Below are positions 7,658 through 41,148 of a stretch of 41,753 nt of DNA, in pieces. The number at the start of each line of letters is the position of its first letter. Positions within the stretch are counted from its first letter, which is position 1. The translations under genes and the position numbers were made by a program. This stretch comes from Candidatus Doudnabacteria bacterium (GTDB taxonomy: Bacteria; Patescibacteriota; Doudnabacteria; UBA920; 2-01-FULL-46-14). Under the pieces are notes generated by a model. It was not told where the DNA came from. It made no database searches and saw nothing but the letters and a program-made list of their open reading frames with translations. Location of the stretch: assembly GCA_023246055.1 (NCBI GenBank), contig JAHFJD010000004.1, positions 1 to 41,753 of the forward strand. The letters run 5' to 3'.

Positions 7658-7670
7658 TTTGCAATTCTTT

Positions 7671-7710
7671 CCCTCCCCAGGCCTGGGGAGGGATCAAGGG
7701 AGGGGTCGCC
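7671..7710. repeat. family A C/G-rich hairpin + G-rich tail
   Basis: CCCTCCCCAGGCCTGGGGAGGG-ATCAAGGGAGGGG; near-identical to 12046 and 40452. Confidence 0.9.
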
Positions 7711-8890: not shown

Positions 8891-8934
8891 AATCACACGC
8901 TATTACCATACTAGTATGGTAATAGCGTGTGATT
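8891..8934. repeat. 44-bp perfect spacer-less palindrome
   Basis: AATCACACGCTATTACCATACT|AGTATGGTAATAGCGTGTGATT. Confidence 0.95.
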
Positions 8935-8989: not shown

Positions 8990-10246
8990 CTAATAGTCTC
9001 TCAACTTCTGAATATGTTTGTGCTCTTTGATGCGCTCGAGGGCTTTGGCTTCGATTTGGCGGATACGCTCGCGCGTGACGCCAAACTCTTTGCCAACTTC
9101 TTCCAGAGTATGCGTCACCCCGTCTTCGAGCCCGAAGCGCATTTTCAAAATCTTTTGCTCGCGCGGATCAAGGTCTTTCAAAACATCGCCCACGTATTCG
9201 CGCAGTATCTGTCGGCCCGCTGATTCTGCGGGCATTGAGGTTTGCTCGTCAACGATGAAATCCCCGAGTCGCGAATCTTCTTCATCCCCCTCATCCCCCA
9301 CGGCTGTATCAATTGACACAGTTTCCTGGGAAATTTTTTGGAGCTGCAGCACTTTGGCTACCTCAATCCCCATTTCCGCGGCAATTTCCTCAACTGTTGG
9401 CTCGCGCCCTAACTCCTGCACGAGCGACCGCTCGGCTTGCGCGTATTTATTGAGAGTCTCCACCATGTGCACCGGAATACGGATGGTGCGCGACTGGTCG
9501 GCAAGTGCCCGGGTAATGGCCTGACGAATCCACCACGTCGCATAAGTGGAAAATTTATATCCTTTCGTCCAGTCAAATTTTTCCACAGCGCGAAACAGAC
9601 CCAGGTTCCCCTCCTGGATGAGATCAAGCAGTCCCAGGTTCCGACCCATATATTTTTTGGCAATGGATACTACGAGACGGAGATTGGCTTCGGTCAATTT
9701 TTTGCGGGCCGCCACATCGCCTTTTTGGATTCTTTTCGCGAGTTCCACCTCTTCCGCACCCTTGAGCAGCGAAACCTTGCCAATTTCCCGCAAATACATC
9801 TGGATCGAGTCATCATAAATATCCCCGAGGTCGTAACTCTCTGGGGTCGCGCTCACAGATTTGGAACGCGGTCCTTCCGGCTCAGCTTTGCTTTGCTCCC
9901 AAATGGAAGCCACCTCCTGATCCACCACCTCCACCCCGAGCCGATCAAGCTCTGAAAACAGCTTTTCCAGAGCCTCGAGGTTCTCTTCAAAATGCGGCAT
10001 GTTGTGAATTATTTCTGCTTCAGTCACAAAACCGCTCTGCTGGCCTTTTTTCGAGAGATCAAAAATGGCTTTGTCCCAATCAAACGCCTGTACCGGATGA
10101 CTTAAGGTTGTGTCGACCTTCCTGCCTCTTCGCTCTTCCCTGCCTTTCCTGTCTTTGCGACGCTTCCCGCCCTTTATCTTGTGAATCGATTTTTTAAAAT
10201 GTTTCGGCTTGGACTTCTTGTTTTTTTTCAATCTATGTTTAGCCAT
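8990..10246 (-). CDS. rpoD: primary sigma factor RpoD with basic N-terminal extension
   Basis: [40 protein letters not shown]; downstream of dnaG. Confidence 0.97.
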
Positions 10247-12033
10247 CAATTACGAAACTTGCTTAGTTCTCCCGCTAAATGATTAAATTCCAAGGACAAT
10301 GTCTTGACGAGCTCTGGATTGCCTGCCGTTTCCGCATTTTTGATCTCTGCGGTCAGCTGGCGCATACTCTTTCTGATTAAGGCCTCCCGAAACTGCCCCA
10401 AAAAATTCTGTTTCAAAGATTCTAGGTTCCCGCCACCCTCAAACGAAATCTCATTATCGAGAGCAAACACCAGAAGATTGAGATTGGTGGCGAGTTTTGG
10501 ATGCTCTGACAAGAGATTTTCCATATTGAGGCGGCCAGACGAGTATGCCTCGGCTATGGTCTGGAAAATTTCCCGATGGACGGGCAGAGAAAAATCTTCG
10601 GCCTTGAGACTCGGGATGTCAAGCGCCAGTTCCTCGGGAAATTTCAGAATCAGCCCGAGAACCCTGGCCTCCAGTATTTCTTGCTTTGTCTTTCGAGGAA
10701 TCGACTGGCTCGACTCCGAAGATCCACCTTGGGCGGATTTGAATTTCGATAGACCTGCTTTGTTTAGTAATTCAATTATGACCTTGGGGTCAACACTGAC
10801 AGCGCCGGCCAGTTTTTGTGAATAATGGACACGGTCTATGCTATCAGGCAGAAGTGATAAAAGCGGGAGAATTTCTCGCACCGCTTGTTTTTTGCCGGTC
10901 GCAGATTGTAAATCCATTGTAGCAAGAATCCGGGTAAAATAAAAGTCAAGGAAGCTTTGAACGCTTTTGACCGCGTTCTCCCAGAGGCTGGGGTCTTTGC
11001 GGATGAGCTCATCGGGGTCTTTGGCAAGAGCTCTGGGGATTGAGATAATCTTCACGTTAAACCCGGCTGCGAGAGCGAGCTCTACAGCGCGACGCGTTGC
11101 CACAACCCCGGCCGCATCTGCATCGAGCGCAAAACTGATGTTTTCGGTAAATCTTTTGAGACTCTCAAGCTGCGGATTTGTAAACGCTGTGCCAGAAGAG
11201 CCTACCACATTGGAAAATCCAAATTCATGGCAGGTAATCACATCCACATTCCCTTCCACTACAATCACCTCATCGCGCTTGCGGATTTCGGTTTTTGCGA
11301 GATTGAGTCCATAAATCAGCCGGCTCTTGCTGTAGATCAGGGTCTCAGGACTGTTAACGTATTTGGAAACTCCGTCCTGGTCTTTCAAAATCCTAGCTGT
11401 AAAGCCCACCACTCGCCCATGCATGTCAAACAGGGAGAACATCACCCGCTCATGAAATCGGTCAAAATAACTGCCGTCTTCTCTTTTGACTAGTAGTCCG
11501 GCGGTGGCGGCCTCCTGCTTTGTGTAACCTTTCTTCACAATAAATTCCTCAAACGCGTGAAAGCCATCTGGAGCGTAACCGATTTGCCACTGCTTGAGAG
11601 TCTCTGGCCTGAACCCGCGTTTTTGCAAATAATCGCGGGCAGGCTTGGCAGTCTGCGAATCCGACAAAACTTTCGAATAAAACAAAGCGGCCCAGTTGTT
11701 AATGTCGTAAAGATTCTTTTTCTGGTCAGGAGTGTAGGACACCCCACCCTCCGGCCGCCGCAATGTCACTCCGGCCCGCGCAGCTAAAATCTGCAGAGCT
11801 TCGGGAAAATCCACGCCCTCGCTTTGCTTCACGAACTCAAAAACATCCCCGCCGAGACCGCAGCCGAAGCAATGCCAGATCTGTTTCGCCGGTGACACTG
11901 TAAACGACGGCGTTTTCTCGGAGTGAAACGGACACAGACCGCGGAAATTCACCCCGGCTTTTTTGAGCCGCACTGTCTCGCCCACGAGATCCACAACATT
12001 GATTTTTTCTCTTATCTCATCCGTTGGCTGCAT
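10246..12033 (-). CDS. dnaG: DNA primase
   Basis: CPFH...CFGC zinc finger, [17 protein letters not shown] and DAD. Confidence 0.97.
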
Positions 12034-12045
12034 ACGGTCTTTTCC

Positions 12046-12083
12046 CCCTCCCCAGGCCTGGGGAGGGATTAAGGGAGAGGTCG
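12046..12083. repeat. family A hairpin + tail
   Basis: CCCTCCCCAGGCCTGGGGAGGGATTAAGGGAGAGG between ppa and dnaG. Confidence 0.9.
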
Positions 12084-15683: not shown

Positions 15684-15746
15684 ATGCCAGACCCCTTTAA
15701 TTTATTATTAACTCAATACCGCAAATTTAAGAGATATGCCAGCAGG

Positions 15747-16163
15747 CTAAATTTCTATTTCCTCTCGCATAAGATCTTCTATTCTGTTTAAAATATTATC
15801 TGGATCGCGGGACGATATGAAAGTAGATAATTTATCACGCAATTTTTTATTTTGGGTTATGAGAAAGGCCTCTGCTACCAATCCCTTAATTGCGTTCCTA
15901 CTTCTCCTCCATTCTTCAACTTTTCTATTATATTCTGCAACTTTTTCGACATGGTAGCTATCAACGCTACCGGCGATATCGTGTGGGTAGTTTCCTTCCG
16001 ATCTTATCGCGGATAAGAGTCTGCCATAAGCAGATATTTTAGTTTCCATAAGAGATTGAGTCTTTACGCGGCGCTTAGAAAGCCATGAACCTAACCAAAC
16101 TCCACCAAGCGAAAAAAGTCCGGTAAGTATGACTAAGAATAGTTCCATAGTAATTTTAAGCAT
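15747..16163 (-). CDS. hypothetical protein with N-terminal TM
   Basis: Low-GC ORF next to the tRNA 3' end. Confidence 0.6.
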   Translation of the reverse strand: MLKITMELFLVILTGLFSLGGVWLGSWLSKRRVKTQSLMETKISAYGRLLSAIRSEGNYPHDIAGSVDSYHVEKVAEYNRKVEEWRRSRNAIKGLVAEAFLITQNKKLRDKLSTFISSRDPDNILNRIEDLMREEIEI

Positions 16164-16265
16164 TTATAAAAGGTCCCGATGCATATGGGTTGCCCTCGAT
16201 AACAAGTTATCTGGCGGTGTATTCTAAAAATAGCTCGAACGGAATTCTGTCCAATCCGGGCAGAG

Positions 16266-16350
16266 CGGAGGCGGTGAGATTCGAACTCACGAGACCCCGA
16301 AGGGTCACGGCTTTCCAAGCCGTTGCACTAGGCCGCTATGCGACGCCTCC
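16266..16350 (-). tRNA. tRNA-Ser(GGA), long variable arm, CCA not encoded
   Basis: GGAGGCG/CGCCTCC acceptor stem, ACGGC-TTGGAAA-GCCGT anticodon arm, GTTCGAATC T-loop. Confidence 0.97.
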
Positions 16351-16545
16351 GCCCTATCCGGATTGACCAATTTTTTAAATACTTGCCCGCCTTTGTACTT
16401 TTTAATCTGTCACTCTCTCAACCATGTGGATTTTTTACCCGGGAATGCTTCACTCGGTCGAGTTCCGCTCGCCCCAAAAAATCAATAACCAATAAATTCT
16501 ACCATGAATTTTTAGTTTATCCAATTTTGTTGAACCTTTCGTAGT

Positions 16546-16581
16546 TGTGGCAAATTCCTGCGGCCGCAGGAATTTGCCACA
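16546..16581. repeat. 36-bp perfect palindrome downstream of the PaaX-like gene
   Basis: TGTGGCAAATTCCTGCGG|CCGCAGGAATTTGCCACA. Confidence 0.95.
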
Positions 16582-16583
16582 TT

Positions 16584-17117
16584 TTATTTTAAACTAAATA
16601 CTTGCCTAAGCTCTCTTTCGTTATCTATCTCCATCACTGTGAGGTAGCGAAAATATTTTCGCAAATTCCACTCCCTTAGAAGCTGATCCAACTCCCCTGT
16701 CACTGGATATGGCGTTATATAAACACTCTCTTGCAATGGCCAGAATCCCAAATTGCTTTTTAATTCTGTTCGGATATACTCTCGCCATTTCTTAAGGCTC
16801 TCTGGCATATCAAAAATTACAATCCGCCAATGTCCATCCCACTTCTTTGGCCTAAGCTTTTCAAGACGTGCATATTTCAGAATGCCGAGTCTCCCTTTCG
16901 GCGTAAGATGAAAAAAGGACTGGTTATTCTTTTCCTTTTGCCGGACATATCCGCGTCTCTCCAGATCGTGCATTTTTAGGAACACGCTTCTATAATCCCA
17001 AGGCATCTCCCCTTTGAAATTAATTTCTGTAAACTCCCGCGATGACAATGCTCCTTTCTCAAGCAAAAGATTGAGAACAATGCGGCTCTTTTCATTCAAC
17101 TTTCTCCCTTTTTTCAT
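16584..17117 (-). CDS. PaaX-like protein (wHTH + Cas2-like/PaaX middle domain)
   Basis: LTPKG, WDGHWRIVIFDMPE...LGF..LQESVYITPY; ATG 17117 preferred. Confidence 0.85.
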   Translation of the reverse strand: MKKGRKLNEKSRIVLNLLLEKGALSSREFTEINFKGEMPWDYRSVFLKMHDLERRGYVRQKEKNNQSFFHLTPKGRLGILKYARLEKLRPKKWDGHWRIVIFDMPESLKKWREYIRTELKSNLGFWPLQESVYITPYPVTGELDQLLREWNLRKYFRYLTVMEIDNERELRQVFSLK

Positions 17118-17133
17118 TTCTCGACTGATTACG

Positions 17134-17181
17134 TCTATTTGTGGCAAATACCTGCGGCCGCAGGTATTTGCCACAAATAGA
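17134..17181. repeat. 48-bp perfect palindrome upstream of the PaaX-like gene
   Basis: TCTATTTGTGGCAAATACCTGCGG|CCGCAGGTATTTGCCACAAATAGA. Confidence 0.95.
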
Positions 17182-17219
17182 TAATAATTCGTTATGTAAT
17201 TTTGGTCAACTTTACTGGC

Positions 17220-18578
17220 TCAAAACAGAACGTTTTGTTTTTTTGAGTCAAATTTTCCTCTCTCCCCTTCTTCAAAGACTTTAATAATCCCATAAACTCC
17301 GTCGTAACCCGGTGTTTTTATCACCCGCTCTTCACGCACACGTTTAACCGCTTCGGCCACCAGCTCTCCGGCGACTGTCTTCAAATCCTCAATCGGCAGA
17401 TCGAGAATCACGGCAAATTCACTGCCCGCTCGGCGGATAAGCTTCCAATAAATATCCTGAATCTTTTTGCTCTTGGAGCCAACCTCAAAACAGTCAGCCA
17501 ATACTTCCTCAAGCGGCACCAAGTGTTTTTGGGGGATGAAATTTTTCGGAACAAATCCTTCCGGCCGATCTGCAAGATCACTGACTCGGGACACCACTCC
17601 GACGACTAACCCGCGACCGCAGACTGGGCAACGGCCACCGGCTCGGCGCGTTTGATCGGGAGTATAGAAAATTTTGCACGGTCCATGACCATCAAGGTGA
17701 TATTTCCCCTCTTCGGGAAAATACTCGATAGTGTATTTGAGGCGTGTGCGGTCTTTCTCTTTGAGGATTCGGAAATATTCAGCATAAGATAATGCGTCCT
17801 CCGGAATCTCCATGACTGTAGCCTCGCGCCCAATGCGCGGCAGAGAATGGGCATCCGAAGCGGAAACGATCGAGAAGCGATCCGTGATCGACACACGCCA
17901 ATTCATAGCCGGATCAGAGGATAGGCCAGTCTCAAAAGCGTAAATATATTTTGTCATATCCCCAAAACATTCCTCGATCGAATCAAAACCGGATTTACTG
18001 CCAAAAATCCCGAAATACGGCGTCCAGGCGTGTGCCGGGATCATCAGCGCAGTCTCGTCTGCATCAAGCAAATATTTCAAAATCTCCACGGAATTCATGC
18101 CCAAAATCGGTCGGCCATCGCTTCCGAGTTTGGCCCCGCGTTTTTCCAAAGAATTCGTGAATTTTTCGACAGCCGCAAACGATGGCAAAAGCAATACATA
18201 ATGCACCCGCCGCATTTTCTTTTCGCCCTGGGAATAGATACAGGCCACCTCGGATGACAGTATAAATCTCACCCCTCCCTCGCCCTCCCCCTCCAGGGGA
18301 GGGAAATTCGTATTTATTCCTTCCCCTTGTCCCACTTTTATTCCCCTCCCTTGATGGGAGGGGCTGGATGAGGGTGATCGTAATTTAAAAAATCCCTGTT
18401 CTGCTTCCTCCAGCTTTTCTCGGAGTTCCGCTCTCCACCCTGGATGCGTAAAATCACCCGTGCCCAGGAGATTGACGCCTTTGATCCGCCCCCATTTGTC
18501 TAAATTTTCCGGAATCAAATCCCGGGAACACGCCCGGGAATATTTGGAATGGATATGGATATCGGAGATAACACGCAT
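17220..18578 (-). CDS. endonuclease Q-family PHP protein, with in-frame repeat insertion
   Basis: DIHIHSKYSRA, GTGDFTHP, PAHAWTP, ETGLSSD, SDAHS, PEEGKYH, GYDGVYG. Confidence 0.9.
   Translation of the reverse strand: MRVISDIHIHSKYSRACSRDLIPENLDKWGRIKGVNLLGTGDFTHPGWRAELREKLEEAEQGFFKLRSPSSSPSHQGRGIKVGQGEGINTNFPPLEGEGEGGVRFILSSEVACIYSQGEKKMRRVHYVLLLPSFAAVEKFTNSLEKRGAKLGSDGRPILGMNSVEILKYLLDADETALMIPAHAWTPYFGIFGSKSGFDSIEECFGDMTKYIYAFETGLSSDPAMNWRVSITDRFSIVSASDAHSLPRIGREATVMEIPEDALSYAEYFRILKEKDRTRLKYTIEYFPEEGKYHLDGHGPCKIFYTPDQTRRAGGRCPVCGRGLVVGVVSRVSDLADRPEGFVPKNFIPQKHLVPLEEVLADCFEVGSKSKKIQDIYWKLIRRAGSEFAVILDLPIEDLKTVAGELVAEAVKRVREERVIKTPGYDGVYGIIKVFEEGERGKFDSKKQNVLF
18269..18377. repeat. family A composite element inside the EndoQ-like CDS
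   Basis: TCACCC...two hairpins...GGGTGA. Confidence 0.85.
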
Positions 18579-18671
18579 AATATGGATTATAAACAAAAGA
18601 GAGGCGAACCACAAAGGGTTCGCCCCACTAACAGGGGTTGTTACCAATTAAGAAGCACTATGTTGCCGGCC

Positions 18672-18824
18672 TTAAGGTCTACGGCTCGGACTTTTTTTGC
18701 TTCGGTGCGAGGATAACCGTTTGCGGTGAATTAATTGCTCCACTAGAACGTCTAGGGCAGCCTGTTTGCCGCTTGTGCTGGTTCGCGGATCCCGCTTCTT
18801 CTTGTGATCTCTGTGACCGCTCAT
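18672..18824 (-). CDS. 50-aa basic small protein; not in the ORF track
   Basis: GAGGAGG SD; MSGHRDHKKKRDPRTSTSGKQAALDVLVEQLIHRKRLSSHRSKKSPSRRP. Confidence 0.45.
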   Translation of the reverse strand: MSGHRDHKKKRDPRTSTSGKQAALDVLVEQLIHRKRLSSHRSKKSPSRRP

Positions 18825-24763: not shown

Positions 24764-24865
24764 TTCTCCCCCTCATGAGGGGGAGCTAAAGGGGGTCATA
24801 GTTGGCTTCGAAAATCTTCAAGGTTCTCTATTACCTCCCCTAACCCCTCCTCACGAGGAGGGGAA
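24764..24865. repeat. family A tail-to-tail pair
   Basis: CTCCCCCTCATGAGGGGGAG...CCCCTCCTCACGAGGAGGGG. Confidence 0.85.
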
Positions 24866-26865: not shown

Positions 26866-27235
26866 CTACCATTCTCGCTCCGAAGTCTTAGTATTACTTA
26901 TCAACTTTGATAACATCTTTTGCACCTCAATAACTAAAGATTCGGCCTTATTATAATCGATATTTGAATACTGCGATTTGGCAACTATTAATTGTGTTTC
27001 TAATTCAGTTGCTGAACCAAATGAAATATTCATAAACCTTACAAATTCCACTTTATGGTTTCGCGCCCAGCCTTCGGCAATATTGGAAGCAATAGAAATC
27101 GCGGCTCGGGTCATTTGAGGAAACAAAATATATTTCTCATTCTCTGGTAACTGCTTGGCTATTGCGTAGACCTCTTTCACTAGCTCAATCGCTTTTTGCC
27201 AAACTATTTAATCTTTAATAAGAATTTACTTTCAT
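26866..27235 (-). pseudogene. four-helix-bundle protein (23S rRNA-IVP/bAvd-like), N-terminus disrupted
   Basis: LP..EKY.L..QM.RAA.SI.SNIAEG, GS..ELETQL; the upstream MKVNSYKD(L)IVWQKA motif is broken by +1 nt and a TAA at 27208-27217. Confidence 0.75.
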
Positions 27236-29134: not shown

Positions 29135-29168
29135 TCCGCATTTTTATGCAATTGCATAAAAATGCGGA
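29135..29168. repeat. 34-bp perfect spacer-less palindrome
   Basis: TCCGCATTTTTATGCAA|TTGCATAAAAATGCGGA. Confidence 0.95.
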
Positions 29169-33405: not shown

Positions 33406-33522
33406 AGGGGGCAACGACCTACTTTCCCAACCGCATCGCGCGGCAGTATCATCGGCGCTGACGTCTTTCACGGCCGGGTTCGGGATGAGACCGGGTGGTT
33501 CAACGTCGCAAATGTCACCCTA
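33406..33522 (-). rRNA. rrf: 5S rRNA
   Basis: CCCGAAC, CGCCGATGATACTG and GGGAAAGTAGG 5S motifs; flanked by a long complementary processing stem. Confidence 0.93.
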
Positions 33523-33708
33523 GAAAAGGGGGTTTTGACTTTGGAGGGGCAAACCCAGAAGGGTTTTTCCCCTTCCAACGGCCTCCCCTTTCCAATGTCA
33601 TCCAGGACACTAGCCAAGCTAGATGTCCTGGATTTAATTTGTGAAATGAGTAATTTTCCTGCCGAAGAGGCAGGATGGCTAACAATCATGAACTGCTAGT
33701 CAAACTAG

Positions 33709-33797
33709 TGGAAGTTGGAAGTGGGAGATGGGAAGTGGGAAAGAAGATTCCAGAGCTTCTCTATCCAACCTCTAACCTCTCACTTCCAACCTCCAAC
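33709..33797. repeat. heptamer-repeat hairpin (GGAAGTK...CMAACCT) abutting the 23S 3' end
   Basis: Tandem 7-mers followed by their complements. Confidence 0.75.
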
Positions 33798-34101
33798 ACT
33801 AAAACACTTTCGGTTGATTAGTAACGCTCGGCTGAATCCCTTACGGGACTTATACCTGCGCCCTATTAACGGGGTCGTCTCCCCCGAACCTCTCATTCCG
33901 CCTTGCGGCGGAACAACGACACTTAATCTTGAGGACGGCTTCGCGCTTATATGCCTTCAGCGCTTATCCAAACTAGGGTTTAGCTACCCGGCAATGCCCT
34001 TGACAGGACAACCGGTACACCAGAGCCCTATTCATCCCGGTCCTCTCGTACTAGGAATGAACCCTCTCAAGTATCGAACGCCCACAGCAGATAAGGACCA
34101 A

Positions 34102-34477
34102 CAATCATGTTACTTCGTAACAAAATTTCTAATTACTAATTTCTAAATAAATCCCAATGATTTAATTTCAAAATTAGAAACATTATTACGTGGCATGGAC
34201 ATTTCTGCCATGCTCTCTATGTCGCCATAGAGTTCAGACTATATCTTTACTCTCCTGTCATCCTCGGGCTTGACCCGGGGATCCAGAACTGGATTCCCGC
34301 CTTCGCGGGAATGACATCGAAAGATGTTGAGCGTGTAGTCGTTGAGGGTTCCTTAAAAAATTAAGATCTTCCCTGCTGATAATCCGCAATCGAAGATTAT
34401 TACGCAATAAATTACGTACTCCAATATACACGGGTTTTCCAGCATATAGCTCAATTTATAGACAGCTTTGGTCACTC
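34102..34477 (-). ncRNA. group I intron after U2604 (E. coli numbering), no ORF
   Basis: 5' exon ends in U, intron ends in G; IGS GCUGUCU pairs with exon AGACAGU; P10 GACCAA pairs with 3' exon UUGGUC; R CAACGACUAC, S GAUAUAGUC. Confidence 0.93.
34257..34315. repeat. family B element in P8 of the L2604 intron
   Basis: Approximate reverse complement of 20655-20710. Confidence 0.9.
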
Positions 34478-34570
34478 ACTGTCTCACGACGTTTTGAACC
34501 CAGCTCGCGTACCACTTTAATAGGCGAACAGCCTAACCCTTGGTAGCTTCTTCACCACCAGGATGTGATG

Positions 34571-35437
<867 letters not shown>

Positions 35438-35641
35438 TAGAGTAGCTTTTATCCGTTGAGCTTCCACCATACCACTATGGATGGTCGGATCACTAACTTC
35501 CACTTTCGTGCCTGCGCGGCGTGCTTGCCTTGCAGTTAAGCCAGCTTATGCGTTTGCACGACCAGCGCGATTTCCATCCGCGCCTAGCTGACCTTTAAAC
35601 GCCTCCGTTACCTTTTAGGCAATTATGTTACTCGTTCTTCT

Positions 35642-35722
35642 TTCTCCCCTTCGTGAGGGGGAGATTAAGAGGGGGTTATGGAATTCATAACCTCCCCTAG
35701 CCCCTCCTCACGAGGAGGGGAA
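35642..35722. repeat. family A pair in the P9 region of the L2262 intron
   Basis: Same architecture as 24764-24865. Confidence 0.85.
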
Positions 35723-35792
35723 CGGGTACGCGCATTTCTGCCGCACTCTGCATGTCGCCATGCAGTTCAGACTATATCACTATCCTCACCTT

Positions 35793-35864
35793 GTCATGCC
35801 CGACCTGATCGGGCATCCAGACACAAAGGACTGGATTCCTCCGCCTTAGGCGGACGGGAATGAC
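35793..35864. repeat. family B element in P8 of the L2262 intron
   Basis: GTCATGCCCG...CTGGATTCC[TCCGCCTTAGGCGGA]CGGGAATGAC. Confidence 0.85.
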
Positions 35865-35913
35865 AGAAAAGGATACTCGGCGTGTAGTCGTTGAGGATTA
35901 TAATTTATGCTTA

Positions 35914-36156
35914 TCAAGATTCAGGTTGTCTATTCTCCAACCAATCTTTAATTGATGTTTTAACACCAACTACTATTCCGTTTTCAGTTATGGCCTCTTC
36001 ACCGGGTCTGAAAGCATAAAATTTACCTTCCGGCGAGATGACCCCCAGTCTGCCTTTTGCAGTAGTCCATTCTCCTTTTTCATTTTGACCAGGTTGAACC
36101 GTTAGTCTTTGTTCCGAGTCTGGACTAACTGAAAACTCTTTCCCTTTATTTGACAT
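35914..36156 (-). CDS. 80-aa intron-encoded protein of unknown function
   Basis: ATG with AGGAAAGGA SD; fills L6 exactly; same strand as the rRNA. Confidence 0.65.
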   Translation of the reverse strand: MSNKGKEFSVSPDSEQRLTVQPGQNEKGEWTTAKGRLGVISPEGKFYAFRPGEEAITENGIVVGVKTSIKDWLENRQPES

Positions 36157-36726
36157 AAATTATCCTTTCCTGCTGGTTGTCTGCACCAAGCTGATTTTCA
36201 CTTTGGCACATAAACCATTAATTAGGTTTATTATACCAAAGTACAGTTGGATACTCCAGATGTTCCAGCATATAGCCAAGTTTTTTTCTTCTAATGTTGC
36301 CATTAGAGGGCCCGGTATGACGCTTCCTCGACAAAAAGTCAAGGCGTAACGTATCGCGCCATACTTCCAGGCAACCGCCCCAGTTAAACTACCCACGAGC
36401 CACTGTCCCTGTGATGGTTAATCACGGGTTAGAATCAAAATTCATTCAGGGTGGTATTTCATATTGCGACTCCTCTCGAGCTAGCGCCCGAGACTCAAAG
36501 TCTCCCACCTATACTAAACAGAACAAATCTTGACCCAATGACACGCTATAGTAAAGCTTCATAGGGTCTTTCCGTCTTGCTGCGGGTAAACGGCATCTTT
36601 ACCGATAATGCAAATTCATCGAGCTATTTGTTAAGACAGTCCCCCACTCGTTATGCCATTCGTGCGGGTCGTAACTTACACGACAAGGAATTTCGCTCGG
36701 ACCATTGTTACTCATTCCGTGTAATA

Positions 36727-36817
36727 TTCCTCCCCCTCGATGGGGGAGGTTAGGTTAGGTGGGGGTGATTATTTAATAATTCACCCTTCCCTTGCCCCTC
36801 CCATCAAGGGAGGGGAA
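36727..36817. repeat. family A pair in the P9 region of the L1931 intron
   Basis: CCTCCCCC/GGGGGAGG...GGGTGA and TCACCC...CCCCTCCC/GGGAGGGG. Confidence 0.85.
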
Positions 36818-36898
36818 TAAATCCCGGAATTGGTGCGATCGTTTCCGTCGCACTCTCTGTGTCGCCACAGAGCTCGGACTCTATCTTCATCTTTGTCT

Positions 36899-36969
36899 GT
36901 CATCCCAAACTCGATTTGGGATCCACGTCATGAATTCCCTCCGCCAGATGGCGGATTCGCGGGAATGAC
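36899..36969. repeat. family B element in P8 of the L1931 intron
   Basis: GTCATCCC...GGGATCCA...ATTCCC[TCCGCCAGATGGCGGA]TTCGCGGGAATGAC. Confidence 0.85.
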
Positions 36970-38797
36970 AATCAAGAGGTGCAGCGTATAGTCTCTACGG
37001 GTTCGAATTACGTAATTAATTACGTAACAAGTCTTCCCTCGGAATTGTCTCATTGATGAGAGTTTTTCCGATATAGCTACATTTTACTATGGCAGCAAAA
37101 CCTTCTTTTCTGAAGTAAATTCCTCTACCATAGGACGATTATAGTTATCGCCGGCGTTCATCAGGGCTTGGCCCACCGGGTTGCCCCAGCGGGTTTAACC
37201 TTCTGACACTGGCCAGGCATCAGCCCGTATACATCAGCTTTTAGCTTTAGCACGGACCTGTGTTTTTGTTAAACAGTCGGGAGGGGGTCATTCGCTGCGA
37301 CCCCGTGTGATAGCGCTTGCGCGACATCACATGGGGCAGGCCATATACCGAAGGTACGGCCGCTTTTTTGCCGAGTTCCTGAACAAATATTGTCTCGTTC
37401 GCCTGAGGATACTCTCCTCATCCACCGGTGTCGGTTTGCGGTACGGTTGGCGCGAAATGTAAGGTTCGAACCTTTTCTTGGCACCTTGGGTCACACAAAT
37501 TTCCCTTGCGGGATTTCTCCAAATTTTCTAGCTTGTCCCGATAAATCGGAACGGCCTTCCGGATTTGCCTGAAAGACCATAGCTCTACGAATTCAGAAAC
37601 CTAAATAGTCAGATTAGGCTTGCACTACCATGATGCGTCAATCCGAAACAAATTTCGCGTCAGCGACGGAATATCAACCGTCTCATCCATCGCACGGCAC
37701 CATTGGGCACCGCACTTAGGGCCGGCTAACCCTGGGCTGATAAGCATTGCCCAGGAAACCTTGGATATTCGGCGTGCAGGATTCTCACCTGCATAATAAT
37801 TACTTATCCCAACATTCTCTCTTGTGAGCGCTCCACCGGCTCTCGCGAGTCCGACTTCGCAGCTGCTCACAATGCTCCTCTACCCCCTGCGCCTTGCGGC
37901 GCAGAGTCGTGTTTTCGGTACAAAGCTTAGCCCCTATACATTGTCGGCGCCCCTGTCCCTCTCCGCCTTCCGTAAAGTTGGCGGAGATTCGAGTAGTGAG
38001 TTGTTACACACTCTTTAAAGGGTGGCTACCTCTAAGCCAACCTCCTACCTGTCTTGGGACAGAAACATCCTTTACACTATAGCTTTGATTTGGGGACCTT
38101 AAACGACGATCTGGGCTCTTTCCCTTTGGACACATGAAGCTTAGACCTCACGGTCTGACTCCTCCGCATACGTTCCTGGTATTCAGAGTTTGATTCGAAC
38201 GAACGACTTGCGCCGCTCGATCCGATTCAGTGCTTTACCCCCAGAAACAAAACGGAAGGCTAGCCCTAAAGCTATTTCGAGGAGAACCAGCTATCACCCA
38301 GTTCGATTGGAATTTCTCCCCTACTCACAGCTCATCCCCTATTTTTGCAACAATAGTGGGTTCGGACCTCCCCCAAGTTTTACCTTGAGTTCATCCTGGC
38401 CATGAGTAGCTCACCGGGTTTCGGGTCTAACGCATACCACCAACCAGCGCTTCGCGCTGGAAATATCGATATATCGAAATATCGAAATCTCCAGTGCGTT
38501 AGCACTGGCAACGGGCTATTAACCCTCGCTTTCACTACGTCTACGCCCGTGTGACGGGCTTAAACAAGCGATATACGTTAACTCGTTGGGTCATTCTTCA
38601 ATAGGCACGACGTTGCCCACTGCTTCGCAGATGGGAATTTCAAATTTCCAATATCAAATGTCAAATGAAATGCATAAAGTGCATCCTTTTGAAATTTGTA
38701 ATTTGGCATTTGACATTCCTAACTGCGGAGCAGTTAGAGCTTCGTCTCCTTGTAGATATACGGTTTCAGATACTATTTCATCGCCCTCACCGGGCTG

Positions 38798-38839
<42 letters not shown>

Positions 38840-39507
38840 AAAAAGTATTTAGTCTTAGATCGTAGTCGACCCAGTTTCGTGCAAGCTTTCACGTGTCTTG
38901 CACTACTTAAGAACCAATCAGGAAACAATTGTGGTCTTTCGCGTACGGGACTATCACCCTCTGTGGTCCGCCTTTCCAGGCAGGTTCTACTAGACAACAC
39001 AAGAAATTTTTCCCTCGCTTTTACAGAAGCGATCGATTGGTCTTGCGACCCCTTATTCACAACGGCTGTAACCTTTAAAGAAATGCAACTCCTAATAAAT
39101 TAGAAACTACACCCCCAACATGAATAAGGTTTGGACTGTTCCCCTTTCGCTCGCCACTACTAGGGGAATGCAACCGATCTCGCCTCGCTCGCTCGGAAAT
39201 CCAAATTACAAAATCCAAATGTCAAAATTTGACATTTGAAATTTGAGCTTTGTCATTCCGTATCGAACGAAGTGAGATACGGTAATTGTTTTCTTTTCCA
39301 CATGCTACTGAGATGTTTCACTTCGCATGGTACCCGAACTCTATATACCACTATAGAGACTTCCGAGGTTTACTCGGAAAGGTTTCCCCATTCGGACATC
39401 CCCGGATCAAAGCTTGTTTGCCAGCTCCCCGAGGCGTATCGCCGGCTCCTGCGTCCTTCATCGGCTTTTTGTGCCAAGGCATCCACCGTATACCCTTATC
39501 GGTGTTT

Positions 39508-40966: not shown

Positions 40967-41148
40967 CAATGCAACAGCAAAGTTCACGAGAGCACGAGGC
41001 TCATCCCTCCGCGCTCTCTTTTTTTTATCTTCTTTTTCTCAAAAGTCCCTTCGCCAATTTCCATCGCGGCCGCGATGGAAATTGGCACTCATGTTTATCC
41101 CGCACCTTTCCCCCGAAAACCCCTCGGCTTGCCGCGGGGATGAACTCG

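Follow-up and report, generated by a model that had tools for sequence, protein, structure and literature searches.

In a 41,753-nucleotide stretch of the Candidatus Doudnabacteria bacterium assembly GCA_023246055.1 (contig JAHFJD010000004.1, positions 1 to 41,753; hereafter the window), a gene encoding a protein of 177 residues, with a winged helix followed by a Cas2-like domain, stands between two perfect palindromes that share their centre, and most of the relatives sampled are likewise bracketed by sites of their own, the sequence of which varies together with that of the protein. The protein is referred to here as mini-PaaX. From the anatomy of the locus, its conservation, the co-variation and the folds we infer DNA binding, dimerisation, repression and a role for the downstream site, and the reading favoured, with moderate confidence, is that of a self-repressing DNA binder, dimeric and sequence-specific, whose gene has private operators on either side.

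A gene between two palindromes of its own

The mini-PaaX gene occupies positions 16584–17117 on the minus strand (ATG at 17117, stop codon at 16584–16586) within an open frame that spans 16584–17174 on that strand. On its upstream side lies a perfect palindrome of 48 bp (17134–17181), with gapless arms of 24 nt (17134–17157 and 17158–17181) that are 100% complementary and a conserved core of 32 bp (17142–17173, dyad centre 17157|17158, half-site TGGCAAATACCTGCGG). On its downstream side lies a perfect palindrome of 36 bp (16546–16581) with arms of 18 nt (16546–16563 and 16564–16581), again gapless and 100% complementary, and a 32-bp core at 16548–16579 (centre 16563|16564, half-site TGGCAAATTCCTGCGG); as palindromes, neither site is assigned a strand. 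Both are centred on GCGGCCGC, the first is separated from the ATG by 16 nt and the second from the stop codon by 2 nt, and their 36-bp cores differ at a single symmetric pair (TTCC/GGAA versus TACC/GGTA). An inverted-repeat search confirmed in all these respects a preliminary description of this DNA, which had reported the two palindromes, their common centre, both gaps and the symmetric difference. The window contains the 36-bp pattern two times, compared with none in 100 shuffles of it, and when up to 3 mismatches are tolerated it is found at the two flanking positions only in the genome of 1,164,896 bases. Folded as single strands, the 48-bp palindrome reaches −24.3 kcal/mol (z −12.4) and the 36-bp palindrome −18.5 kcal/mol (z −8.3). 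In a scan of 16000–17600 against Rfam at E up to 1, the tRNA alone passed, and the palindromes gave sub-threshold matches to miRNA precursors, that is, to generic hairpins.

The arrangement is repeated elsewhere in the genome, which holds 11 paralogs, 23–42% identical to the window protein; a profile built from the 11 retrieves precisely those 11 among 7,688 open reading frames (ORFs). Perfect palindromes stand on both sides of 4 paralogs (contigs C50, C19, C54 and C11, in the contig numbering used here), with a different sequence for each, and on one side only of 2 further paralogs, and a tolerant dyad scan detected matched dyads on both sides of 11/11. Members of the family were detected in 33 of 41 sampled genomes of the order, a single genome having as many as 13, and at least 596 related stretches were retrieved at one genome per species; the best 80 of these carry mostly Patescibacteria or candidate phyla radiation (CPR) names, together with a few metagenome-assembled genomes labelled otherwise. 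Among viral contigs 14 stretches with the pattern were found, none of them encoding a relative detectable with the query used.

Conservation of the flanking sites was evaluated in 151 cassettes, each taken with 150 nt of flank on either side, from the own genome, eight genomes of the family, order-level loci and 80 public loci. Each cassette was scored by the best ungapped 32-mer that its two flanks share, and the null consisted of 600 mismatched pairs combining the upstream flank of one gene with the downstream flank of another, with a 99th percentile of 22/32. A match of 23/32 or better was observed in 118/151 cassettes. A strict scan for palindromes (at least 11 pairs, at most 1 mismatch) of 56 family-level genes found them on both sides of 11, on one side of 10 and on neither side of 35, a result that undercounts the flanking sites because most of these are imperfect. 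The palindrome-gene-palindrome unit postulated in the preliminary description is thus real and conserved, being present in 11/11 resident paralogs and placing 118/151 cassettes above the null, and the concern raised there that homologs might lack flanking palindromes did not materialise. A description of the family was not found in a literature search that left subscription journals and supplements outside its coverage, and in a protein-cluster look-up no source named these proteins.

Protein fold and co-variation with the sites

Residues 91–165 of the protein match the Pfam family PaaX_M (PF20803, ‘PaaX central Cas2-like domain’) with an E value of 3.2e-19 (69.2 bits versus a cut-off of 24), and the winged-helix Pfam matches ahead of it are weak. 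The winged helix-turn-helix extends over approximately residues 1–88 and the Cas2-like/PaaX_M domain over approximately residues 93–173; the motif VIFDMPE is also present, so that the combination of a winged helix and a Cas2-like fold read from the letters in the preliminary description is borne out. Residues W93, D94, W97, F102, D103, P105, R112, Q129 and S131 are conserved in the family, which retains the Cas2 signature FD(I/M)P...R...Q-x-SV, with D103 kept in at least 90%.

The structural model of the whole protein has a predicted local distance difference test score (pLDDT) of 90.9 and that of the C-terminal domain folded alone one of 91.0. Residues 1–95 of the model superpose on operator-bound PadR 5x11 (Z 12.8) and on MarR 5h3r (Z 12.6), and for the whole model Foldseek ranks Escherichia coli PaaX 8a39 first (E 1e-7). 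The C-terminal domain is modelled as ferredoxin-like, with the order beta-alpha-beta-beta-alpha-beta; it aligns to residues 95–187 of 8a39 with a Z of 9.0, and its top eight matches are all PaaX-like or Cas2 proteins (after 8a39, 3exc with Z 8.3, 8ia4 8.2, 7cr6_E 8.0, 3kfw 7.5, 1zpw 7.5, 2i0x 6.8 and 7mi4_E 6.5), compared with a Z of about 6 for generic ferredoxin-like folds and of 5.9 for VapD 6zi0. In a sequence-profile search the best solved relatives of this domain were Cas2 proteins, with weak E values of 0.035–0.8; in the alignment FDiP faces YDV, FDLP or FDMP, QkSV faces QrSaF or QkSVY, and D103 corresponds to the Asp in beta-1 of Cas2; in E. coli PaaX the place of FD(I/M)PE is taken by LSEG.

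The protein belongs to neither curated family, as it scores 35.7 bits with the NCBIfam PaaX equivalog (TIGR02277, cut-off 264.55) and 18.8 bits with the Cas2 family TIGR01573 (cut-off 24.5), the PADLOC Cas2 model giving an E of 3.8e-4. No match to PaaX_C, the C-terminal helical ligand domain, was detected at E up to 1, and the protein ends at residue 177. The best explanation is that it represents a ‘mini-PaaX’, in which a PadR/MarR-like winged helix is joined to a Cas2-fold domain, minus the C-terminal ligand domain of PaaX. Prediction of a homodimer of the 177-residue protein gave a score of 0.35, for a mark of 0.42, a value that speaks neither for nor against a dimer.

The architecture of the sites was derived from 81 cassettes in which both dyads have at least 11/16 pairs, after removal of 3 duplicates. 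The four arms of a cassette disagree at positions 13–16, by the centre, in 4–14% of the 81, at the outermost positions 1–4 in 14–26% and at positions 7–11 in 38–51%, and positions 6–9 of the half-site are about 90% A/T. The centre follows a family-wide core, RCGR|YCGY, with C at position 14 in 78/81 and G at position 15 in 65/81. The sites are therefore two-block dyads made up of a paralog-specific outer block, a variable A/T-rich spacer and the family-wide core, the blocks being TGGCAA and GCGG|CCGC in the window. Because the two conserved blocks surround a free A/T spacer, the pattern appears to fit the footprint of a protein with two contacts per half-site rather than a continuous stem. Of 357 mismatched pairs, 81 would be compatible with G.T pairing on the sense strand and 63 on the antisense strand, with no clear bias.

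Sites and proteins vary together. When 56 proteins from nine related genomes are arranged in a tree, the members of a clade have sites with a common centre (GCGGCCGC, CAATTG, CGATCG etc.). In a sample of 97 cassettes, with 30 shuffles as the null, the base beside the dyad axis and the alignment column of residue 130 have a mutual information of 0.82 bit (null maximum 0.37); this residue is the x of the invariant L-Q-x-S-V in the Cas2-like domain. Lys or Arg at this residue is accompanied by a central A in 59/60 cassettes and other residues by a base other than A in 31/37, so that residue 130 predicts the central base in 90/97; the window protein, with E130 and GCGG|CCGC, conforms. Eight phylogenetically independent pairs on supported branches that differ in residue class, of which about 6.5 go in the same direction and 0 in the opposite one (median sign-test p 0.03), suggest that the residue and the base switched together repeatedly. 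Position 2 of the outer block co-varies with residues 46 and 47 (0.69 and 0.77 bit, null maximum 0.64), which in the model fall in helix 42–54, the third helix of the winged helix. Moreover, 14 of the 15 GCGGCCGC-type sites in nine family genomes occur in genomes that encode a protein of the matching clade, and a reversed control gave 0. Co-variation of protein and palindrome, proposed as a check in the preliminary description, is thus evident from the shared centres, from residue 130 and from the co-occurrence of sites and clade, and on this indirect evidence the proposed recognition of its own palindromes by the protein is upheld.

At G008:C16:19785–19808 (genome, contig and positions) a perfect site of the GCGGCCGC type, AAATTCCCGCGGCCGCGGGAATTT, was also observed, in a genome from which the query used retrieved no member of the matching clade; it may be the leftover of a lost cassette.

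Self-repression and competing explanations

A promoter-like TTGACC-17 nt-TATTAT is present on the minus strand at 17181–17209 (10/12 consensus matches), and its −10 hexamer ends precisely on the outermost base of the 48-bp palindrome. Since the −10 abuts the palindrome, transcription would start at the edge of the site, a location typical of repressors, and self-repression is proposed because the upstream site begins at this putative start. A TTGAC(C/T)-17/18-TAnnAT ending 7–13 nt ahead of the core is found in 4/5 orthologs that occupy the same chromosomal slot (G000, G003, G005 and G006), the case of G004 being unclear. In 115 cassettes promoter-like hexamers peak within the right arm of the upstream site, a weak hint, the upstream and downstream windows not being comparable. 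Helical phasing of the two sites was considered and discarded, as the distances between their centres (594, 607, 678 and 694 bp) correspond to no whole turns.

According to the mechanism proposed, a dimer would bind a dyad of about 32–36 bp, its two winged helices reading the paralog-specific outer blocks (here TGGCAA) and its Cas2-fold domains, on the dyad axis, reading the core RCGR|YCGY (here GCGG|CCGC), and would repress its own promoter through the upstream site. Such self-repression would mirror that of E. coli PaaX at Px; PaaX is described as repressing its own promoter by hindering RNA polymerase, at the dyad TGATTC-N27-GAATCA (PMC9493321). The site after the stop codon would be a second binding site, probably acting as a roadblock, an insulator or a loop partner in what is a tightly packed string of co-directional genes, and 11 paralogs with private sites would be able to coexist without cross-talk. 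In short, mini-PaaX is most likely a regulator that controls itself and belongs to a large family.

Several observations weigh against this explanation. Copies of the sites also occur away from the gene as solo dyads, and 7/12 of the intergenic ones lie between convergent genes and two sites stand in frame inside genes, which are not the places of classical operators. The Cas2-fold domain carries the near-invariant acidic residues D94, D103 and E106, a trio that would be odd for a surface devoted to DNA contact alone and that hints at metal binding. With the ligand domain absent no derepression signal is apparent, and the role given to the downstream site is a guess. Furthermore, the relatives share kinship, so that raw counts overstate their independence, and the gene calls behind the context statistics are greedy ORF calls.

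In a second explanation, possible but unlikely, the system resembles the repetitive extragenic palindromes and their transposases (REP/RAYT): a metal-dependent Cas2-fold nuclease would cut or nick the dyad centre, as duplex, cruciform or hairpin, and disperse perfect palindromes derived from single arms, while the gene, inherited vertically, would keep its sites on either side as a RAYT gene does. The two accounts are not exclusive, and such an activity may go together with self-repression. The domain does retain the Cas2 signature that canonical PaaX lacks, and no Y1/RAYT transposase (PF01797) was found in the genome, although the same search was positive in 6/14 control genomes. Single-copy genes under vertical inheritance are also reported as a feature of REPIN-RAYT systems (bioRxiv 10.1101/2022.05.22.493013).

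The census of solo sites supplies further support. Solo dyads within 2/16 mismatches of a paralog’s own arm were recorded for 8/11 paralogs, 1–4 each, in this 92.8%-complete genome. There are 15 distinct solos (one with 3 mismatches), of which 12 are perfect, each of these derived from one variant of the cognate arms; several match one particular arm of the cognate cassette at 16/16 positions, the solo at C3:13018 corresponding to the inner upstream arm of the C21 cassette and that at C32:10793 to the outer downstream arm of the C9 cassette. The solo of the window protein (C28:6279–6314) agrees with the flanking sites in its outer 10 nt and in its centre. It follows the ortholog of a gene that in G005 precedes an entire cassette belonging to this clade, yet in its outer block it corresponds to the protein of its own genome and not to that of G005. 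Twelve solos are intergenic with both neighbours called, 7 of them between convergent genes compared with 125/797 gaps in the background; the test of this enrichment was run over all solos (7/15 versus 125/797, p 0.0047, n=15). Two of the 15 lie inside called ORFs, one of which (107 aa, C23) is probably spurious. The other, at C24:10352–10381, is in frame in an alpha/beta hydrolase and absent from 6/6 family orthologs, with a length change of 0 aa; a further match outside the 15 (C24:9432–9463, 4 mismatches) is in frame in a Mur-ligase-like gene, ahead of the loop GITGSYGKTT, and absent from 5/5 family orthologs, with a length change of +3 aa. Sites of these kinds, in frame or in convergent gaps, are not promoter operators and are what low-level dispersal would leave.

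Two other features of the solos deserve mention. One of them is part of a repeat of 120–148 bp that begins with a C22-type dyad and is found at the end of C6, the end of C47 and the start of C62; as it ends two contigs and starts a third, at least two copies must exist at which the assembly was broken. The upstream site of C21 is a hybrid, with a left arm equal to the perfect solo C24:10366 and to the cassette’s own downstream site, and a right arm equal to both arms of the perfect solo C3:13018 at 16/16 positions, which implies exchange of half-sites between distant loci.

REPs typically reach tens to hundreds of copies per genome, in comparison with which the 1–4 solos per paralog are tiny numbers. 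In addition, the protein is devoid of HUH/Tyr chemistry, nuclease activity and transposition being putative for the family, and the intragenic solos replace sequence instead of leaving a clean insertion signature. Most flanking sites of the relatives are imperfect, with conserved blocks that resemble a binding footprint. In metagenome contigs assembled from four DNA runs over 15700–18700 the unitigs break at both palindromes, and no excision joint or skipped form was seen in these assembled contigs, which are uninformative on excision. Taken by itself, the proposal that the Cas2-fold domain is a live metal-dependent nuclease that cuts the palindrome centre, fold-back intermediates seeding perfect palindromes, seems slightly less likely still; the two winged helices would then place the Cas2-fold domain on the dyad axis, and new palindromes formed from single arms via a hairpin or fold-back would land in convergent gaps and coding loops.

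The history of the locus bears on the same question. The slot is bounded on the lower side by the gene for tRNA-Ser(gga) (16265–16350, minus strand), which lies beside it in 8/9 family loci, the locus of G005 being too short, and on the upper side by a 475-aa gene (17220–18647, minus strand), the stop of which is 38 nt from the 48-bp palindrome. The 475-aa protein matches no Pfam family above the cut-off, and orthologs are present in 9/9 family genomes with 68–83% identity. The order 475-aa gene, cassette and tRNA-Ser(gga), with a two-dyad cassette, is found in 7/9 genomes, and slot cassettes of the window clade occur in five genera with 59–74% identity. In genus g8 the slot cassette is separated from this clade by the deepest split in the tree (28–31% identity, sites centred on CATATG) and the adjoining 475-aa protein is 75–83% identical, so that the slot was either refilled or diverged very fast. 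In G001 and G002 the 475-aa gene and the tRNA-Ser gene are 0.7–1.0 kb apart, and the interval contains no family ORF, read-through remnant or dyad of at least 11/16, nor a single-palindrome scar.

The preliminary description had named a mobile cassette as a candidate; recent mobility of the gene is not supported, given a slot beside tRNA-Ser common to five genera and paralogs that are only 23–42% identical. The empty sites with a single palindrome anticipated there are missing from the slot of G001 and G002 and have a counterpart in the C28 solo, at the place where G005 carries the full cassette. The analogy with REP/RAYT fares in a similarly divided manner: it is sustained by the solos of 8/11 paralogs, the enrichment in convergent gaps and the two in-frame cases, whereas the gene itself is syntenic and old and cleavage would be hypothetical.

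The perfect symmetry of the sites calls for an explanation of its own. Arms within a site are identical in 20/81 upstream and 35/81 downstream sites (55/162 together), and like arms of the two sites of a cassette, left with left and right with right, in 9–12/81 per comparison (21/162 together); mismatches between arms are bimodal within sites (0 or 3–5) and unimodal between sites. In 84 cassettes, duplicates included, two perfect but different palindromes, the situation of the window, were counted 11 times, two identical perfect ones 5 times and two identical imperfect ones 0 times, and in the L028 cassette both palindromes are perfect though differing at 4/16 core positions per arm (5/19 over full arms). 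This pattern is beyond the reach of independent point mutation. The preliminary description had attributed the symmetric difference between the two copies to selection on hairpin or cruciform structure, an interpretation that is not supported, since in most relatives the dyads are imperfect, with conservation confined to two blocks, and no clear G.T bias is seen on the sense strand. Perfect symmetry together with a symmetric difference between copies would most simply reflect arm-to-arm homogenisation of each site separately. Template switching during replication is reported to homogenise the arms of inverted repeats (PMC7202029, PMC8604942, PMC8794818), and, acting site by site on quasi-palindromes, it would account for perfect arms as well as for the symmetric differences. 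The same outcome could arise if the cassette were inverted between the centres of its palindromes, a possibility that was discarded for the one informative pair, G000 C19 with sites AA'/BB' versus G008 L033 with AB'/AB', in which the gene and its flanks are collinear.

A device acting at the level of RNA, with the palindromes as 5' and 3' hairpins of the mRNA that the Cas2/VapD-like domain binds or cleaves in post-transcriptional self-control, is quite improbable. With a start after the predicted −10, the upstream palindrome would lie in the 5' untranslated region and the downstream one in the 3' untranslated region, both fold very stably, and the fold matches include SSO8090 (3exc, an RNase according to its PDB title) and the toxin VapD (6zi0). 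However, the mismatches show no clear G.U-compatible excess on the sense strand, the sites consist of two blocks with a free A/T spacer and no continuous stem, winged-helix residues co-vary with the outer block as for reading of duplex DNA, and solos are found in either transcriptional context. That the palindromes are ordinary bidirectional terminators or generic repeats beside a short gene, unlinked to the protein, is hardly credible: although the genome is rich in palindromes (90 perfect ones with arms of at least 10, for a chance expectation of about 1), many of them at gene 3' ends, each paralog has the same private sequence on both flanks, 118/151 cassettes exceed the mismatched-pair null, clades share site centres, a protein residue predicts a site base and no T-run follows the downstream palindrome on the strand of the gene.

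Genomic surroundings and comparison with known systems

Apart from the cassette, the window carries housekeeping genes, including dnaG, a sigma-70 gene, the genes for GAPDH and PGK and a 23S rRNA gene with introns. None of 43 of its ORFs scanned against Pfam proved to be a cas or paa gene, and a CRISPR-like tandem array was likewise absent, both searches being confined to the window, for which they agree with the preliminary description. The region 33406–39495 comprises the 5S rRNA and the 23S rRNA gene, the latter with three group I introns, and a LAGLIDADG endonuclease ORF (34698–35279); a gene for a 23S-rRNA-intervening-sequence protein is located at 26866–27177.

Long dyads (at least 13/16 symmetric pairs with a perfect 8-bp core) are abundant in the genome as a whole, with 76 versus 2 in a shuffled genome, and palindromes of other kinds are among those observed. 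A second family, ..GTATTA(C/G)CAT-ACTAGT or GTTAAC-ATG(G/C)TAATAC.., has at least 12 copies with no adjacent mini-PaaX gene, located in contigs C31, C52, C4, C49, C58, C18, C27 and C37 and in the window at 8891–8934, 55 nt past the stop of the sigma-70 gene (8990–10249). A third family, GTTGTACAATTCGCGCGAATTGTACAAC, has 6 copies (C7:133, C28:5, C38:8030, C52:9692, C65:22671 and C16:3602), several of them upstream of small ORFs. The window further contains two perfect 34-bp solos, one at 29135–29168, with a CAATTG centre, between convergent genes of the inositol-monophosphatase and cupin families, and one at 41053–41086, with a GCGGCCGC centre, ahead of an ORF with an alanine-racemase C-domain; each is 6 mismatches away from the nearest arm of a resident paralog. 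In five relatives, cassettes of the CAATTG clade lie directly upstream of an inositol-monophosphatase-family gene. G/C-rich hairpin repeats of the CCCCTCCC..GGGAGGGG types, the commonest class among the genome palindromes listed, were observed at ~18340–18377, 7670–7693, 12046–12067 and 24766–24785. The first of these is read in frame as part of a variable linker, rich in Gly and Pro, in the 475-aa protein, and a depth above 1000 in the metagenome contigs at this position indicates a widely dispersed repeat; the alpha/beta hydrolase of C24 has a similar G-rich in-frame insert that is missing from its orthologs.

CPR/Patescibacteria genomes are usually regarded as poor in recognisable regulators. 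A single family would provide 11 candidate regulators in 1.16 Mb and up to 13 in relatives, and as each has a private site of about 32–36 bp on both sides of its gene, the code relating protein and site can be read from sequence alone; nature would thus offer in it a collection of orthogonal repressor-operator pairs. To our knowledge, it would also be the earliest described case of a Cas2-fold domain that reads DNA sequence. The solo sites and the palindromes derived from single arms raise the question whether a Cas2-type acidic site cuts DNA. If it does, the family would be a non-HUH counterpart of REP/RAYT in the CPR, with many private pairs of palindrome and enzyme per genome, and a free-standing, sequence-specific and DNA-acting relative of Cas2, which bears on the origin of the latter. 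What the present analysis adds is a genome-wide count of sites and solos, the conserved geometry of promoter and operator, an account of how the slot evolved, figures on the homogenisation of arms and an independent test of the rule for residue 130 and of the in-frame solos.

With regulators of the PadR and MarR families mini-PaaX shares an N-terminal domain that superposes on their structures (Z 12.6–12.8), a small size and a dyad operator; it differs in sites that are about twice as long and placed on both sides of the gene, and in that dimerisation and reading of the centre would fall to the Cas2-fold domain. With REP/RAYT systems it has in common a single-copy, vertically inherited gene flanked by its own palindromes, which also occur solo in extragenic space, but it is no Y1/HUH transposase, each paralog has 1–4 solos and the two-block sites are footprint-like. 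With Cas2 and VapD it shares the ferredoxin-like fold (Z 6.5–8.3 for Cas2 chains) and the motifs FD-x-P and Q-x-SV, whereas it scores below the Cas2 cut-off, is fused to a winged helix, has no CRISPR array or cas gene in its window, to which that search was confined, and appears, from co-variation, to read the centre of a DNA dyad.

The closest known relative is PaaX (E. coli W, 8a39; PaaX-like 3l09 and 3kfw), the phenylacetyl-CoA-responsive repressor of paa operons. Both proteins have a winged helix followed by a Cas2-like middle domain, and 8a39 is the best structural match of the whole protein as well as of its C-terminal domain. The putative operators of mini-PaaX are also similar in span to that of PaaX, a long dyad with widely spaced half-sites (PMC9493321). 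On the other hand, mini-PaaX has 177 residues versus 316 in the 8a39 chain, without the C-terminal helical ligand domain, and keeps FD(I/M)PE where PaaX has LSEG. Its gene has sites on both sides and no paa gene among the scanned ORFs of the window, 11 paralogs coexist in one genome of 1.16 Mb, and the core of the site co-varies with the Cas2-like domain.

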